A stretch of DNA of 64,000 nt from an uncultured Gemmatimonadaceae bacterium. Its GTDB lineage: Bacteria > Gemmatimonadota > Gemmatimonadetes > Gemmatimonadales > GWC2-71-9. A program made the position numbers and the translations under genes. The stretch lies in NCBI GenBank assembly GCA_964578865.1, contig CAZOES010000007.1, positions 16,169-80,168 of the forward strand. Reading direction: 5' to 3'. The notes beneath the pieces were generated by a model, which was not told where the DNA came from, made no database searches, and saw only the letters and a list, made by a program, of their open reading frames with translations. Below, piece by piece: positions 33,261 to 39,902 of this stretch. Position 1 is the stretch's first letter. Every line of letters starts with the position of its first letter.

Positions 33261-34709
33261 TCAGCGGCCGGGAATGTTCCGCCCGTGACAGGCGGCACAA
33301 GTCTCGGGATTCTTCCGGCGCAACCGATCCGCATCGAAGCCGGGCCCGTGGGGATTGAACCCACGGGTCTGGCTGGAATGACAGGCCAGGCAATCACGCT
33401 CCGAGTGACAGGTGACGCAGGTCTCGAGATTCTGGCGAGCCGCCTGCCCATGACCCAGGACGAAGACGGCCTGGGCATCATGGAACTTGCCGCTCAACAG
33501 TCCACCGCTGGATCCAAAGCCGGACTGGGTATGACAGGAAGTGCAGAAGGCAGCCTGGTTATGGCACTGGCTGCAGTCGCTCTGCCGATTGTAAGCCGCC
33601 GCTGGATGGCGGGAAAGAAACCCGGCCGGATGATAGCTGTCGCTGCCGGCCGGATTGGGACGATGACACTCGAGACATTCGCTTCGGGCGTGACAGGCAT
33701 TGCAGCTCCTCGGCGCTGAGTTGGCCAGGGAGGCGTGGCGATCCGCGAAGTCGCCGGTATGAGTCGCCGGGCGAGTTCGCACGATCTGGGCTCCCGAGCC
33801 CCGTCCGGCACCCGCCGGTGGCAAAGCCAAGGCAACCGAGGGATTTGAACGGTGACAGCTCACACAGCTCGGCTGGGTATGACAGTTGGCGCAAGTCGCC
33901 TTGCTGCCGCGGCTGAGACTCCCATGCTTCCGCTGGAAATTGGCCTGCTGGTGGTCCGCCGGTGACTTGAGCTCCGCGCCGATCGCCAGCGAACGGGGAT
34001 CGGATTCCAGGGCCTGAATTGCCGCGACTTCCGGCGCGTTGACGTGACACTGGGTGCAGAACTCCCGAGCATGACAGGTGGCACAGCTCTGGGCCACGCC
34101 TCCACCTTGCCTTGCCTGGGCGCCATGGCCGGACGAGAGCGAAAAACCGGGCGCTTGATGCGAGGACGGGGTGGGGAATCGGGCCACCCGTTCCCGAGGA
34201 AGGCTGACCGCCTTCGCGAGGGTCAGGTGACAGGTGGCGCAAGTCGAGTCGGGGGCGGAGTAGTGGGCCACCCGGATCTGGTGGCAGGTCATGCAGGCGG
34301 CCTGCACCGGTGCAGCTTCAACCGCCATCCAAGCCGCGCCAGCTTGGCCATGGCACTCCATACACGAGAGGGTCGAATCCCGCCCAGCTCGGCCGTGCCA
34401 GGCCTCCCCGTGGGCCGAGTGGGTGAAACGAAGATTGGATACTCTCGGCTCCGGCGGTTGCCAGCTTACCTCGCGCAACGGCTTTCCCGCGACCTCGAGT
34501 TTTCCGTTGTGACAGTTGGCGCAGGTCACCGGCTGGGGGTAGAGAGGCTGAGCCTTTGCGGCGGCACCCGCGTGGCAGGTCTCGCAGCTGACGAACAGCT
34601 TCCGATGCTGCCAATGATCGAACCCGTCATCACGGGCAAGCCGGGCGCTGGTGGCGGCGCTCAGCAGGACTCCCAGCAAGAGCAGCCCGGCGGTGGTGGT
34701 CCGCTTCAT
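33261..34709 (-). CDS. Secreted 16-heme c-type cytochrome (doubled-CXXCH repeats)
   Basis: I counted 16 CXXCH motifs, five of them in close doublets such as CATCHAREFCTQCH and CVTCHSERDCLACH. Start moved to ATG 34709 (MKRTTTAGLLLLGVLLSAATSA, a signal peptide), which forms an ATGA overlap with the upstream gene's stop codon. Confidence 0.85.
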   Translation of the reverse strand: MKRTTTAGLLLLGVLLSAATSARLARDDGFDHWQHRKLFVSCETCHAGAAAKAQPLYPQPVTCANCHNGKLEVAGKPLREVSWQPPEPRVSNLRFTHSAHGEAWHGRAGRDSTLSCMECHGQAGAAWMAVEAAPVQAACMTCHQIRVAHYSAPDSTCATCHLTLAKAVSLPRERVARFPTPSSHQAPGFSLSSGHGAQARQGGGVAQSCATCHAREFCTQCHVNAPEVAAIQALESDPRSLAIGAELKSPADHQQANFQRKHGSLSRGSKATCANCHTQPSCVSCHRSNPSVALALPPAGAGRGSGAQIVRTRPATHTGDFADRHASLANSAPRSCNACHARSECLECHRPNPAGSDSYHPAGFLSRHPAAAYNRQSDCSQCHNQAAFCTSCHTQSGFGSSGGLLSGKFHDAQAVFVLGHGQAARQNLETCVTCHSERDCLACHSSQTRGFNPHGPGFDADRLRRKNPETCAACHGRNIPGR

Positions 34710-36202
34710 CGCGTGCCTCGACGCCTGACGGCCGGTGGCAGCGGGATCCGATCCGCGCCTGAACCAAGCAGCCATGAGATGCTGGCGGCCAGACGGGTCT
34801 GATTCCAGTCGAACGCACCCGAGTCGGGGCGGCGATGCTTCTCCCAGTAGCGGGTGGCACTCAGGCCGAAACGGAGCTGATCGGTGGCCTGGAGGTCGGC
34901 CTGGATGCCTGCCCAGTCGAGGGTCACATCGTTGTAGCGGAACTCGAGGGGCCTGGTTAGATGCCCGCCATCCGCCGAGAGGGAAATCCGGCGGCCATCC
35001 CGCCAGCTCAATCCCGCGTCCCATCCTTTCGAAGCGGCGCCCGGCCCGAACTCGGCGTGATAGCCGGCCCGGGCATGCCATGACGGTCGGATGGCCCAGC
35101 CTGCGCCCGCATTCCAGCGCCAGCCCCGGTCCTCCACAGTTACCAGTCCGTTGCGAACTTCAGCGTCGGCATACCAGTAGCGCTCGGCGGAGCCCGACAG
35201 ATCCAGGCCTTTGAAGGGTGTCGCCGAGGCCGCCCAATTTGCCGCGGTGTACCCCACCGGACTGAAGACACCCCAGATGGTCCACAGATCGAAATAAGGC
35301 CGGTAGTAGCGCACCCCGGCGCTGCTGCTCCAGCGGGTCCGGCTGTAGCGCAGAGACAGATCGGAGGTCCCCCACTGGTCCCGGGCCAGATCGTATTCGG
35401 AGCCGCCGGTCAGCGACCAGTGGGGGTCCAACGGGCGAAGAGTTGCGCTGACCCCAATGCGCTCCGAAACAAAGTTCCTGGTTTCCCGGTCTACCTCCCG
35501 CTGGTATTCCACGCGGGCGTCGGCCCGGGGGGTGTTCCATTCGGCGCGGCCGCCTGCCACCAGTTGGCGCCGTTCCGGCTGGAAGTCATCGAGGGGGTTG
35601 AGCGCCGGGCTGGTTACCGGGAGGGCCGTGCTCCTCGCCAGTCCCAGGCCGGCGTAGACTCGGGCCGACAGACCGAGGTGATCGCTGCGCGCCGTGAAAC
35701 CGGCGCCATCGTACCCGAGGTAGCCCAACCGGCCTGATTCGAGCTGACGGCCGGCCTGGGCGCTGAACCAGTCTCCCGCGTAGTCCACATAACCTTCCAG
35801 CAGTTGCACCGCCGGGTCCAGTCCGGGCCAGCGCTTGTCTCCCTGGAGGTCGAAACCCAGCCGGGCATTGGCGTGGATGCTGACTCGCGGAAGCCCGATG
35901 CCCCAGGCCGTGAGCGCCACCGAAGTCACCATCGGGGCGCTTCGCACTTTCTCGCCCGGTCGGTAGAAGGTGCAGTTGATCGCGCCGGGCGCGCAGTCAG
36001 CCGCGAATCCGTCGGACGTTTCCCGGCCGCCTCCGGCGGTTACCACCGTATTGGCCAACGCCACGCTATCGAGCCGCACGCCGCGATACGCCACACTCTG
36101 AACTCTCGAGTCCAGTCGCAGGAGGAATCCCTGGCATTGGGCACTTTGGGCGGCAGCACAGATCATTGCCACGGTCGCCAGCACCGGAGCTGTTCGTCTC
36201 AC
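34706..36202 (-). CDS. Porin-like outer-membrane beta-barrel protein (no heme motifs)
   Basis: Signal peptide MRRTAPVLATVAMICAAAQSAQC. The sequence is rich in alternating aromatic/Gly/Arg/Asp segments (SLRYSRTRWSSSAGVRYYRPYF, RWNAGAGWAIRPSWHARAGYHAEF, DWAGIQADLQATDQLRFGLSATRYW). The GTG start 36202 has GGAGG 7 nt upstream and a GTGA overlap with the upstream stop codon. Confidence 0.6.
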   Translation of the reverse strand: MRRTAPVLATVAMICAAAQSAQCQGFLLRLDSRVQSVAYRGVRLDSVALANTVVTAGGGRETSDGFAADCAPGAINCTFYRPGEKVRSAPMVTSVALTAWGIGLPRVSIHANARLGFDLQGDKRWPGLDPAVQLLEGYVDYAGDWFSAQAGRQLESGRLGYLGYDGAGFTARSDHLGLSARVYAGLGLARSTALPVTSPALNPLDDFQPERRQLVAGGRAEWNTPRADARVEYQREVDRETRNFVSERIGVSATLRPLDPHWSLTGGSEYDLARDQWGTSDLSLRYSRTRWSSSAGVRYYRPYFDLWTIWGVFSPVGYTAANWAASATPFKGLDLSGSAERYWYADAEVRNGLVTVEDRGWRWNAGAGWAIRPSWHARAGYHAEFGPGAASKGWDAGLSWRDGRRISLSADGGHLTRPLEFRYNDVTLDWAGIQADLQATDQLRFGLSATRYWEKHRRPDSGAFDWNQTRLAASISWLLGSGADRIPLPPAVRRRGTR

Positions 36203-38049
36203 TGGCCACCTCCGCTCTGGAGCAGCTGAGGGCGATAGTCAGCTGGAGTGCGGAGCAGGTGGCAGCTGCTGCACTCCGCCGGGCCGTAGTGATCCTGCTG
36301 GGGCGAATGGCAGGTGAGACAGAATGAGCGCCGAGGCTCGAGGGCCGCGACCCGCGCCCGAGTATGGCAGGCATCGCAGCGGACATGGGCCAAGACCGGC
36401 CGGGCGTGCGGGGCGGTAATTGCGTCGGTCCGATGGCAGGTGGCACAGGCCCGCCCCGCTTCATGGTGCGACTCATGGCAACCCTGGCACCGGGTCACCG
36501 AATCGGCGGGCGCCATGGTGACCGGCGAGCTGTGGCAGCTGATGCAGGCCCTTTCGCGGTGACTCGGGTGAGAGAATCCCACGGTTCGGGTCCGGGGGCC
36601 GTGATCCTTGACGGCAACCTGGACCAGGACGGACTGCAGCGGTGCCAGTCGGGTCTCCGAGTGGCAGCTGGCACACTGATTGGTCTTGGGGTCCTGGTGA
36701 TGACAGATCTGGCAGCCCCGGGGTGGCTCGAAAGTGAGCTTGCTTTTCTGGGCTGAGGGGACGTGACAGGTCAGGCAGGGCAGCTTCTGGTGCCTCGCAT
36801 GTTCGAACGAATCCGCCGGCTGGGAATGATTCGGCGGCGGCTGAGGCGCCGCCGCCGCGGGTTCAAAGGGGGGCCCATCACCTTTCACTTTTTGAGGCCG
36901 CTCTTCGGCGGGCTCGGGGGCCATCGAGTTGCGCAGCGTCTTGAGGGTGTCGAAGGGCAGGGGAGGGACCGGTCCCTCGGTCCTTCTCGCCCTGGCCCGT
37001 TCGTGACATCCGGTGCAATCGCTGGCGTCCACTCGAGCGGCGTGGGGCAGGTGACAGGTGAGGCATCGCTCACCGACCCGGCGGTGCTGGGCTCCGGTGT
37101 GGAACAGGTCCTTCCGCCAGTCGGCATGGCAGTTGGCCGAAGAACAGCTGGTGCGGGCCTCGGCCGGGGTCTTTTGTTTGTGGGGATCGTGGCACATGCC
37201 GCAGGTCCCGTTGTGGGGATCCTTGGCGGCGTCGAAGTCCGGTAGCCGCTGCTTCATCTCGTGACAACGGAAGCACTGCTGCAGGGCGGGGCGCAGCGTG
37301 CCGGCTGCCGAATCGCGGGTGGCCAGGGCTGGCACCGAGGCGGTGAAGATGTGGCAGCCCGCGCAATGGAATTCACCCTGCGTGGCCATCTTCCCTAGTT
37401 TGATCCGGGTCTCCGACTCCGCATGACAGCCCGACTGGCCGCAGGTCTGATTGACCGGGACGAAGCGGTGGGCGGTGCGGGCGTGGCAGGTCAGACATTC
37501 CTTCTTGCCGACCAGCGCGGATGAATCGGATTCGAGATGGGTGCGGTGGCCGGCGGTGGCGGCGATGGCCTGCCAGGTCTTCTTCGCGTCCCCCTGCACG
37601 TGGCACTGCTCGCAGATCTGGCGGGGGACTTTGGCGTGTTCCGGAATCGTCGAGTCGCGCACGCCCGACATCCATAGCACCAGCTTGACTGCCTCCTTCA
37701 CCGGCTTGAGCGGGTGACAGGCGTGGCAACTGAGGGAGTCGTGCTTCCCTTCCATCAGGGGCACGACCGTGTAGTTACCCGAGTCGGGCGGTGGCGGCAT
37801 CAGCTGCCCGCTGGGAATGAAGATGTGGCAGCCGGTACAGAACCGCTTGTCGGTCTCGATGAAGTGATTGACCTGGTACCCGCCGAACCCCGCCATCAAC
37901 AGGGCCAGAACCCCCACGCTGCCCAGTGCAAAGAGCACCGGGCGGCTTCGGGTCTTGAACCAGGTGATGATGTGTTGCCGTTTGGGCCAGAGCCAGCGGA
38001 CCAGAAAAAAGGCGATGATCCCCGCCAGCACCACGCCGCCCCACATCAC
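36199..38049 (-). CDS. Membrane-anchored multiheme cytochrome: NapC/NirT(CymA)-like tetraheme head fused to about 16 further hemes
   Basis: Two N-terminal TM segments. There are 18 CXXCH plus 2 CX4CH motifs (CGQSGCH, CSSANCH). The first four motifs (ETDKRFCTGCHIF, SLSCHACHPLKP, QICEQCH, ECLTCHARTAHRF) follow the NapC/NirT spacing as I recall it. A Pro/Ala-rich linker lies at about aa 355-405. Confidence 0.85.
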   Translation of the reverse strand: MMWGGVVLAGIIAFFLVRWLWPKRQHIITWFKTRSRPVLFALGSVGVLALLMAGFGGYQVNHFIETDKRFCTGCHIFIPSGQLMPPPPDSGNYTVVPLMEGKHDSLSCHACHPLKPVKEAVKLVLWMSGVRDSTIPEHAKVPRQICEQCHVQGDAKKTWQAIAATAGHRTHLESDSSALVGKKECLTCHARTAHRFVPVNQTCGQSGCHAESETRIKLGKMATQGEFHCAGCHIFTASVPALATRDSAAGTLRPALQQCFRCHEMKQRLPDFDAAKDPHNGTCGMCHDPHKQKTPAEARTSCSSANCHADWRKDLFHTGAQHRRVGERCLTCHLPHAARVDASDCTGCHERARARRTEGPVPPLPFDTLKTLRNSMAPEPAEERPQKVKGDGPPFEPAAAAPQPPPNHSQPADSFEHARHQKLPCLTCHVPSAQKSKLTFEPPRGCQICHHQDPKTNQCASCHSETRLAPLQSVLVQVAVKDHGPRTRTVGFSHPSHRERACISCHSSPVTMAPADSVTRCQGCHESHHEAGRACATCHRTDAITAPHARPVLAHVRCDACHTRARVAALEPRRSFCLTCHSPQQDHYGPAECSSCHLLRTPADYRPQLLQSGGGQ

Positions 38050-38234: not shown

Positions 38235-39902
38235 TCAGTTGGTGCCCCTCGCGGTGGTGCCTCGAGACGCGGCGTAGGCCTTCACAATCGCCGCCTGGGC
38301 GGAATTACCCAGCTTCAGCTTGCCGCTGTTCACCGCGGCCTGGATCTGGGCCAGGATCGGGTCAGGGGCGCTGTTAATGAACCCGGGATAGCTCGCGAGC
38401 ATATCGGCGATCGAAGCCTGGAGCAAGGCCCGGTAGAGGAACGGATTGTGGACTCCGTGCGATCCGTCGGGATGGCTGGCCATTCCGTCGGCCAGCATCT
38501 GGGCATTGAAGAGGGCGCCCTTGGCCGGCGTGATCACCGTGTTGTACGGCGCGGTGGTGAAGTTGAGATCGTTGGGCTGGTTGAGTTTGACCAGGGCCAG
38601 GTAACCGGAGTCGGTGGGGAATGCATCCACGGTCTGGTTGTGGTTGACGTCCACCCAGAGGGTATGGATGTAGCCATCCCGCTCGGTCTCGAACTGGGTG
38701 AGCCGCTGCACCGCGATCGCCTCGGTGGCGTGGCAGCCCGAGCTGGTGCAGGCCCCCCACGAGCGGCTTGGTACGTCGTAGGCGCAGTTGTTGGTGTAGG
38801 TGGTATCCACCACCACCGGACTCTTGGACTGAAGACAGGGCAGCGGGTGGAACGAGTGACCGCTGAAGGTGATGTTGTTCCCCCCCGCATCCACCCCAGT
38901 CAGCTTGTTCACGTGGCAACCGGCGCAGAGCCTCGGGTTGGCACTGGAACCATGGGTGGTCAGGATCTCGGTAGTGTCATAGCTGCTTCCCGGCGGGAAG
39001 TAACCGGCGTTGCCGAGCAGTACCGGGCCCTGGGTGCCGTGCGGACCGCGCGAGGAAGCCGGGTTGGGATCTGGCGCCCGGTCATGACACTTCATGCAGA
39101 GGTTCTGGGCCAGGTTGGGGACGTCAATCGGGAACCGGAGCTGGCCGGGATAGGGCAGCCCGGTGTTGGGATCCTTGGCCGTGCCATGGGGATCGTGACA
39201 CACCACGCAGTTCTGGGGCAGCAGCGTCGTGGTCCCCTGCTCCTTGTAGATCGTGTTGACGCCCCACGCGGCCAGCGCGCCTTTGCCTTCATGGCACTGG
39301 ACACAGCTGGCGTTACCGGCTGGACTGGCCCGTAGCTGGCCGTGCCGGGAGGCTAGCCATTCCTTCAGATAGCTGTGATGCCGGGCCGGACCGGTGTCGG
39401 TGTGGCAGGCACCGCAGCTGCTGTTGGTCAGAGCCGCAGCGGTATCAATGTTGATGCTGGGGATCGGTCGGTTGCCCACCACGGTGGGATTCTTCACGTG
39501 CTCGAGCCCGGGTCCGTGGCAGCTCTCGCACTGCACGTCGTGATACGCCGTGCTCTTCACCGAATCGTAGCCCACGTGGCCGAACGGTTGATTGCCCCGG
39601 GAGTTTACGCTGTGGCAGCCGGCGCAGAAATCCTGAGCAAATCCGCTGGCCTGCAGGTCGCCCCAGGCCATCGCATGTTTGGTCTGGATCCAGTCGCCCT
39701 GCTGACCCACGTGGCAGTTGCCGCAGGTGGTCTGCTGGTCTGCCTCTTTATAGTACCCGAGGAAACCACTGGCTTCGTCGGGTGGAGTATTGAAGGGAGG
39801 TCGGTCGCGATAGACCGTGTCGGTGCAGGCCGAAAGACCGGCGATTGTTAGAAGCGCCAGTACAAGCGTCTGAGAGGCCAGCCGGGGGGTAGTTTTTCTC
39901 AT
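38235..39902 (-). CDS. Lipoprotein multiheme c-type cytochrome (8 CXXCH + 1 CX4CH) with heme-free C-terminal domain
   Basis: Lipobox LTIAGLSAC. Heme motifs: CGNCH, CAGCH, CESCHGPGLEH, CGACH, CVQCH, CVVCH, CMKCH, CAGCH and CTSSGCH. The last ~170 aa have no Cys-heme motif. Confidence 0.85.
   Translation of the reverse strand: MRKTTPRLASQTLVLALLTIAGLSACTDTVYRDRPPFNTPPDEASGFLGYYKEADQQTTCGNCHVGQQGDWIQTKHAMAWGDLQASGFAQDFCAGCHSVNSRGNQPFGHVGYDSVKSTAYHDVQCESCHGPGLEHVKNPTVVGNRPIPSINIDTAAALTNSSCGACHTDTGPARHHSYLKEWLASRHGQLRASPAGNASCVQCHEGKGALAAWGVNTIYKEQGTTTLLPQNCVVCHDPHGTAKDPNTGLPYPGQLRFPIDVPNLAQNLCMKCHDRAPDPNPASSRGPHGTQGPVLLGNAGYFPPGSSYDTTEILTTHGSSANPRLCAGCHVNKLTGVDAGGNNITFSGHSFHPLPCLQSKSPVVVDTTYTNNCAYDVPSRSWGACTSSGCHATEAIAVQRLTQFETERDGYIHTLWVDVNHNQTVDAFPTDSGYLALVKLNQPNDLNFTTAPYNTVITPAKGALFNAQMLADGMASHPDGSHGVHNPFLYRALLQASIADMLASYPGFINSAPDPILAQIQAAVNSGKLKLGNSAQAAIVKAYAASRGTTARGTN

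Follow-up and report, generated by a model that had tools for sequence, protein, structure and literature searches.

A heme-free, outer-membrane-type β-barrel coupled to multiheme cytochromes in Gemmatimonadota as the probable porin of a porin-cytochrome conduit

The window analysed here, a stretch of 64,000 nucleotides from an uncultured Gemmatimonadaceae bacterium (GenBank assembly GCA_964578865.1, contig CAZOES010000007.1, positions 16,169 to 80,168 of the forward strand), carries on its minus strand a gene cluster for multiheme c-type cytochromes, in which one gene codes for a protein without heme motifs. This gene (34706..36202, −), called the barrel gene in the following, was taken from the list of open reading frames and its translation: it has a GTG start, a TGA stop at 34706-34708 and a product of 498 aa, 475 aa after maturation. 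In the direction of transcription, a lipoprotein cytochrome as first cluster gene (38235..39902, −; lipobox LSAC) and a membrane-anchored cytochrome of 616 aa with an N-terminal transmembrane segment (36199..38049, −) precede the barrel gene, and a c-type cytochrome of 482 aa (33261..34709, −), which has a Sec signal and lacks a lipobox, follows it. An earlier note on this DNA had described the barrel gene as the only heme-free one of the cluster, and neither CXXCH nor CX3CH or CX4CH was present in the protein, which also lacked the N-terminal CXXCH of a Cyc2-type fusion. The three neighbours contained 8 CXXCH and one CX4CH, 18(+2) and 16 heme motifs, respectively. The genes overlap on either side, the stop codon of the 18-heme cytochrome with the start of the barrel gene in GTGA (36199..36202, −) and the barrel stop with the start of the 16-heme cytochrome in ATGA (34706..34709, −), in line with the proposed translational coupling between two large multiheme cytochromes.

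The precursor begins with a putative signal peptide (residues 1-23, 36134..36202, −; MRRTAPVLATVAMICAAAQSAQC, followed by QG), read from the sequence as a basic n-region (MRR), 14 hydrophobic residues as h-region and AQC as the small-x-small motif before the cleavage site. This layout agrees with the alignment of the homologs, which have the consensus A-x-A followed by Q, and residues 4-22 form a detached helix in the structural model described below; a cleavable signal had been predicted before. Two of the four cysteines, C15 and C23, lie in the signal peptide, the other two, C70 and C77, in the mature part. The mature length was counted at 475 aa, as estimated earlier, with 11.2 % Gly and 11.6 % Trp, Tyr and Phe together. 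At the C-terminus (SWLLGSGADRIPLPPAVRRRGTR) the last strand (b22, residues 464-480, 34763..34813, −; FDWNQTRLAASISWLLG), which resembles an internal β-signal and has nearly invariant W466 and R470, runs out in ISWLLG. It is followed by a presumably periplasmic tail of 18 residues (481-498, 34709..34762, −; SGADRIPLPPAVRRRGTR). The protein ends in R, and the classic β-signal with an aromatic residue at the very C-terminus is absent, as the earlier note had stated; such a tail or a shorter extension occurs throughout the family. The note had also let a basic tail of about 20 aa overlap the next gene. The basic tail exists, but the overlap comprises only 4 nt, the stop codon and the next ATG.

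Structure prediction with AlphaFold2 (AF2) was performed on 36 family sequences with the cluster representative P0001 as query, which is identical to the window protein in 497 of 498 positions (V54I). For conservation, two alignments were used, A1 with 36 close relatives and A2 with 27 diverse relatives, the most distant at 24 % identity. The prediction, which the earlier note had suggested as a check, yielded an all-β barrel of 22 strands (DSSP) rather than a soluble fold, with a mean predicted local distance difference test (pLDDT) of 77 and a predicted TM-score (pTM) of 0.69. Amphipathic segments had been noticed before; in 22 of 22 strands, one face was hydrophobic and one polar among the 27 diverse members, the dyad hydrophobic pattern of a membrane barrel. 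Counted back from the C-terminus, every second connection is a short turn of 2-6 residues and the others are loops, most of them longer and reaching up to 27 residues, as is usual for outer-membrane proteins. Strands b1 (residues 25-48) and b2 (76-100) are about twice as long as usual and flank loop L1 (residues 49-75, 35978..36058, −; pLDDT 82-86), the 27-residue loop of the cysteine pair, which bears a small hairpin. The tail was modelled with a confidence below 50.

A Foldseek comparison of the model with the PDB gave 317 matches at E ≤ 1e-3, and all 50 among the matches listed were outer-membrane barrels. The highest query coverage, expressed as query-normalised TM-score (TMq), was obtained with FimD (24 strands, 0.43-0.45) and TonB-dependent receptors (0.41-0.42), followed by MtrB (6r2q_B, 0.39, E 7e-8); the diffusion porins MOMP, OmpM1, Occ and AlgE were matched as well. 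None of these stood out, so the fold is best described simply as a large outer-membrane barrel. The signal peptide, the antiparallel amphipathic strands, even in number, and the alternation of short turns and long loops are generic properties of this class. On the model, the assignment of the 498-aa protein as a β-barrel of about 22 strands is solid, and the outer membrane would be its location. The heme-free barrel postulated in the earlier note was thus recovered, including its size class, nearer to OmbB-type porins than to MtrB. By standard geometry, the backbone of a 22-strand barrel would have a diameter of about 40 Å, an estimate that falls between the predicted OmbB-type barrels and MtrB; the width of the lumen and the placement of the loops are likewise estimates from the model.

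The best structural coverage was with the translocation domain of the FimD usher, which raises the question of a pore for export or assembly. Acting like an usher or in place of a secretin, the barrel might carry a cytochrome of the cluster to the cell surface, perhaps for polymerisation or display, without serving as a permanent sheath. MtrB has been described as similar to secretion barrels and MtrA as a case of "stalled excretion" (PMC7198977), and the 16-heme cytochrome has no lipid anchor. But the TM-scores are low, and other large barrels score just as well. Ushers and TonB-dependent receptors share with the barrel the 22-24 strands and the highest TMq values, 0.41-0.45, yet they differ in gene context, and the barrel has neither their plug and periplasmic domains nor a match to their family hidden Markov models (HMMs). 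The 22 strands and their loops account for the 475 mature residues, the Usher model of Pfam was not matched, and a chaperone-like gene is missing from the cluster. We consider an export pore highly unlikely. A specific version, in which an usher-like pore threads the anchor-less 16-heme cytochrome to the surface, perhaps to polymerise or to carry a heme wire far past the outer membrane, with the FxLWTIWGxFSPV loop as gate, is given still less credence; if true, it would constitute a dedicated outer-membrane secretion route for cytochromes, so far undescribed.

A word-indexed search returned more than 760 relatives of the barrel, nearly all of about 495 aa; wherever the organism was given, it belonged to Gemmatimonadales or Gemmatimonadota. 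All named homologs were annotated as "hypothetical protein", except for one record of the Joint Genome Institute (JGI), an "opacity protein-like surface antigen". An exhaustive phmmer search of 1.84 billion representatives yielded 345 clusters at 50 % identity; among ten distant clusters looked up, Gemmatimonadaceae was the sole organism label, and most were without a name. In species-representative genomes, the pattern F[EDP]LW[TS][IVL]Wx[AV]F occurred in 550 stretches, of which 518 were relatives. With so many homologs of uniform length and so many relatives among species representatives, the gene is far beyond chance. The best 80 of the 518 relatives were from metagenome-assembled genomes (MAGs) of Gemmatimonadota, apart from two contigs filed under Acidimicrobiaceae (L076) and Bacillota (L078). 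These two carry the complete 18-heme/barrel/16-heme module in MAGs filed under monoderm phyla and are most likely mis-binned Gemmatimonadota contigs. The gene was present in 131 of 301 sampled Gemmatimonadota genomes (~44 %), mostly as a single copy. Two or three family matches, where one is the rule, were observed in the genomes G191, G298, G105, G160 and G045; G191 and G160, for example, have two full-length copies, and in G045 and G298 frameshifts or contig ends have broken up or cut short single genes.

Pfam gave for the window protein only a sub-threshold match to OMP_b-brl and no specific family, and for the 27 diverse members weak matches to generic barrel models, OMP_b-brl in nine and Porin_4 in four (best E 5e-11). 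No NCBIfam family matched the barrel, and a profile of the family against all PDB chains, MtrB 6R2Q_B included, had no match at E ≤ 10. In the full-text literature searched, neither a description of the barrel family nor of an outer-membrane electron conduit of Gemmatimonadota was found. As judged from these comparisons, the barrel belongs to an unannotated family that is nearly confined to Gemmatimonadota wherever the source records are named.

Could the protein nevertheless be a divergent true member of the MtrB/PioB or the Geobacter OmbB family, gained by horizontal transfer? The operon logic is the same, MtrB was among the Foldseek matches, and the strand number is within the OmbB range (PMC4245776). 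Against this, the comparison with the MtrB_PioB model that the earlier note had proposed was negative: PF11854 remained unmatched at E ≤ 1 in the window protein and in all 27 diverse members. PF11854 also matched nothing in the whole genome, a result that adds little since the control genomes evidently held no Shewanella-type positive. The family profile found no PDB chain, and the phmmer clusters, 345 in all, pointed to no organism other than Gemmatimonadaceae among the distant ones looked up. Older predictions had assigned 28 transmembrane motifs to MtrB. The solved structure has a barrel of 26 strands, similar in size to FimD and LptD, in which inner charged residues bind MtrA and surface loops cover MtrA and leave a narrow exit (PMC7198977). 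The model of our barrel has 22 strands and a C-X6-C in loop L1, whereas MtrB has an N-terminal CXXC motif at C42/C45 (PMC12175506). The MtrA/DmsE model TIGR03508 reached E-values of 0.06 on the 16-heme and 6e-5 on the 18-heme cytochrome, far below the cutoff, so that the 16-heme partner is not of the MtrA/DmsE type. Membership in MtrB/PioB was therefore rejected, at the sequence level by PF11854 and 6R2Q_B and further by strand count, CXXC and partner, and true membership in either known family, with OmbB judged by its published description, is regarded as extremely improbable.

The cysteines of the pair C70...C77 (DCAPGAINC, 35972..35995, −), correctly read before as an N-terminal C-X6-C, are invariant in A1 and A2, hence down to 24 % identity. 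A cysteine pair was also present in all of 20 distant loci, taken from other families, orders and classes of Gemmatimonadota, with a spacing of 4-6 residues; in A2 the spacing reaches 8, giving 4-8 family-wide. This variable spacing speaks for a structural disulfide and against a site for metal or heme, and C70-C77 probably staples the L1 hairpin. The earlier comparison with the periplasmic motif of MtrB was not supported: modelled in L1 between strands 1 and 2, the pair would be extracellular by the standard topology of outer-membrane proteins. The most conserved segment of the family is the signature R-Y-R-P-x-F-x-L-W-T-I-W-G-x-F-S-P-V in loop L7 (residues 298-317, 35252..35311, −), with a conservation of 0.81 compared to a mean of 0.51 and with P302, F304, W310, F313 and P315 invariant in A2. 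Other long loops were also above the mean, namely FGPGAA (0.69), PLEFRYND (0.58) and loop L4 (0.54; residues 188-212, 35567..35641, −; LARSTALPVTSPALNPLDDFQPERR), in which P209 is invariant and the AF2 confidence is low. Short turns were mostly the least conserved parts (0.25-0.5), with the exception of turn 101-106 (0.68). The long, presumably extracellular loops are thus the best-conserved parts of the barrel, the reverse of ordinary porins, which suggests that they may bind a conserved partner or project into the lumen.

The C-terminal tail has a motif of its own, D-R-x-P-L-P-P-A-[VI]-R-R, which is kept in members with at least about 45 % identity and degenerates to [LV]-[PH]-P-A-[IV]-L-R at 35-40 % identity; the most divergent branch lacks it. 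Its conserved Pro and Ala residues are encoded by varied synonymous codons, and the tail is a conserved feature of the protein, not a by-product of the gene overlap. GGAG or GAGG was located in the last tail codons (RRxG or RREGR), 6-12 nt before the next start, in 49 of 79 loci, and the window gene has a Shine-Dalgarno-like GAGG in its last tail codons (34709-34730, −). This may be the ribosome-binding site of the next gene and constrain the basic end, but in GC-rich DNA such a signal is weak evidence.

The gene neighbourhood was compared in 83 loci and in the 20 distant loci. The conserved order is lipoprotein cytochrome, 18-heme cytochrome, barrel and 16-heme cytochrome. A 16-heme cytochrome was located downstream of the barrel in 80 of 83 loci; it had 465-496 aa, 16 hemes and an offset of −4 in nearly all complete loci, and the junction was ATGA in 46 and GTGA in 32 cases, together 78 of 79 distinct loci. 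Upstream, a homolog of the 18-heme cytochrome, usually with 17-19 hemes, was found in 79 of 83 loci and the lipoprotein cytochrome further upstream in 61 of 83. In the distant loci, cytochromes of 8-19 hemes precede the barrel. Directly after it came a 16-heme cytochrome in 16 of 20 and a cytochrome with 9-14 hemes in 3 of 20, and one contig ended there; a downstream multiheme cytochrome, the gene context of Pcc (porin-cytochrome) porins, was thus present in 80/83 and 19/20 loci. In some loci the upstream 18-heme cytochrome had given way to, or been shortened to, a 9-heme protein. The inner-membrane module differs from locus to locus and the pairing is kept, so barrel and 16-heme cytochrome form the fixed core. 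In a minority of loci, namely L003 (7153-8004), L044, L049, L057 and L084, the gene directly upstream of the barrel was free of heme c motifs and coded for about 283-423 aa. The one in L003 encodes a Ni_hydr_CYTB-like cytochrome b, and more genes for cytochrome b and NapC/NirT-type proteins are nearby. A cytochrome-barrel fusion of 1043 aa in L090 (4321-7452) was discarded; the upstream cytochrome gene is frameshifted, and the GC-rich reading frame merely stays open past it. The correlation of barrel identity with that of each cytochrome (Pearson r 0.62, 0.90 and 0.55) was rejected as evidence for a contact because it reflects shared phylogeny.

The conserved loops and the cytochromes could also be explained by a substrate or diffusion channel, through which a soluble acceptor or donor, e.g., a chelated metal, an oxyanion or a sulfur or nitrogen compound, enters the periplasm and reaches cytochrome reductases or oxidases, the barrel itself holding no cytochrome. 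The Porin_4 and OMP_b-brl matches of some members and the diffusion porins among the top Foldseek matches fit this explanation, the loops as best-conserved parts are able to form a specific constriction, and the first cytochrome of the cluster, with 8-9 hemes and a heme-free domain, could be catalytic. Solute porins have 16-18 strands, however, and a 22-strand barrel without plug domain is far larger. Across the phylum, the start/stop overlap strictly couples the barrel 1:1 to a 16-heme cytochrome of wire-like heme density, which points to a stoichiometric complex, and 42 hemes in three proteins are far beyond the need of a reductase for a soluble substrate. A diffusion channel is therefore thought unlikely.

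The barrel probably serves as porin, or sheath, in a porin-cytochrome electron conduit specific to the lineage; the function is inferred from the model, the conserved residues and the gene pairing. The barrel would be exported by Sec and inserted into the outer membrane. Conserved charged residues would line its wide lumen, which would hold part of the 16-heme cytochrome and insulate the heme chain across the membrane, both proteins being made 1:1 through translational coupling. Electrons from the quinone pool may be fed in by the membrane-anchored 18-heme cytochrome, and the lipoprotein cytochrome may be a surface or periplasmic terminal. The conserved loops (L4, L7, FGPGAA, PLEFR) and the disulfide-stapled L1 hairpin could clamp or cap the cytochrome or dock a surface partner, as the surface loops of MtrB do. 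The charged interior and the covering loops of MtrB fit the conserved polar lumen and loops of the barrel, which supports the sheath function as likely, if unproven. The insertion of the cytochrome, the direction in which electrons would pass and the substrate are inferences.

Several known conduits offer a comparison. With MtrCAB of Shewanella (6R2Q, PF11854; PMC7198977) the proposed system would share a large barrel without plug around a wire-like cytochrome, charged residues in the lumen, loops that may cover the cytochrome, the FimD/LptD-like size and cysteines near the N-terminus. Besides the features already named, the two differ in gene order, barrel before cytochrome here and mtrA before mtrB there, and in the number of hemes, 16 versus 10. 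Parallels exist to the porin-cytochrome systems of Geobacter sulfurreducens (OmbB-OmaB-OmcB and the Ext clusters; PMC4282303, PMC4245776): a heme-free barrel, with 18-22 strands predicted for the Pcc porins (PMC4245776) and 22 here, a porin gene directly before the gene of a non-lipoprotein periplasmic multiheme cytochrome, and a lipoprotein multiheme cytochrome in the cluster, porin and periplasmic cytochrome being inherited together. OmbB was compared by its published description. The partner here has 16 hemes in about 460 aa, in contrast to the 8 hemes of OmaB; the operon adds a membrane-anchored cytochrome of 17-19 hemes; and the invariant cysteine pair, the loop RYRPxFxLWTIWGxFSPV, the C-terminal PLPPAVRR tail and the phylum set the system apart. 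The PCC3 and PCC4 clusters of Fe(II)-oxidising Proteobacteria (He et al. 2017, PMC5566968) were likewise proposed from genomics alone and include a dedicated inner-membrane redox partner; PCC3 combines a heme-b inner-membrane protein with extracellular cytochromes of a median of 34 hemes (PMC5566968). This likeness is one of description; those clusters use other protein families, in Proteobacteria and Planctomycetes.

Some observations weigh against a conduit. A 22-strand barrel is narrower than MtrB with its 26 strands. Its two most conserved loops were modelled at a pLDDT below 50 and could block the lumen. For the 16-heme cytochrome, the AF2 model was poor, with a pLDDT of 57 overall and below 45 in the C-terminal half, and does not show a rod shape. 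Pfam, NCBIfam and PDB-profile searches detected no homology to characterised conduit barrels, OmbB lying outside this comparison. A cultured host was looked for among the named records, which were MAGs only, and no phenotype of extracellular electron transfer in Gemmatimonadota was found in the literature searched.

With one heme per 30 aa, the 16-heme cytochrome equals the wire-like MtrA in heme density (PMC5566968, PMC7198977), and it could exceed a length of 100 Å if its hemes were arranged linearly. For its AF2 prediction, the first row of the alignment had one extra N-terminal Ala (reference start 34712 versus 34709); a Foldseek search with the resulting poor model gave no meaningful match (best E 6). 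Residues ~30-145 match the pentaheme ActA of Alternative Complex III (6lod_A, 3.9e-8; 8k9e_A, 1.3e-7; 6f0k_A, 7e-6), and a pentaheme unit of this type may have been the basis of the conduit cytochrome. The 18-heme cytochrome had a weak match (E 0.003) to chain A of 6r2q, which is MtrA, labelled "Cystathionine beta-synthase" in the PDB copy. In the lipoprotein cytochrome, residues 92-167 match the "Uncharacterized protein" 6i5b_A (E 7e-8) and residues 58-169 the NCBIfam model of an UshA-like (seleno)protein, the latter below the cutoff; its C-terminal half of about 230 residues contains no heme motif.

By analogy, the design suggested here is known from Mtr, Pcc and PCC3/PCC4: a heme-free barrel, a periplasmic and a lipoprotein cytochrome and a quinol-linked inner-membrane cytochrome (PMC4245776, PMC5566968). 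New are the protein family, for which no relation to MtrB/PioB was detected, the 16- and 18-heme partners, the cysteine pair in loop 1, the signature loop, the tail and the phylum. Since the system design is known, the gain is one of breadth and mechanistic variety, not of principle. Gemmatimonadota are among the most abundant phyla of soils and sediments, and in about 44 % of their sampled genomes the barrel and its 16-heme partner are the fixed core of a gene module. If the barrel is a cytochrome sheath, the porin-cytochrome design would have arisen independently for a third or fourth time. The motif F-x-L-W-T-I-W-x-x-F together with the cysteine pair would then serve as a signature for annotating the potential for extracellular electron transfer in metagenomes, and a smaller barrel of 22 strands with a longer wire of 16 hemes would be available for structural and bioelectronic work.

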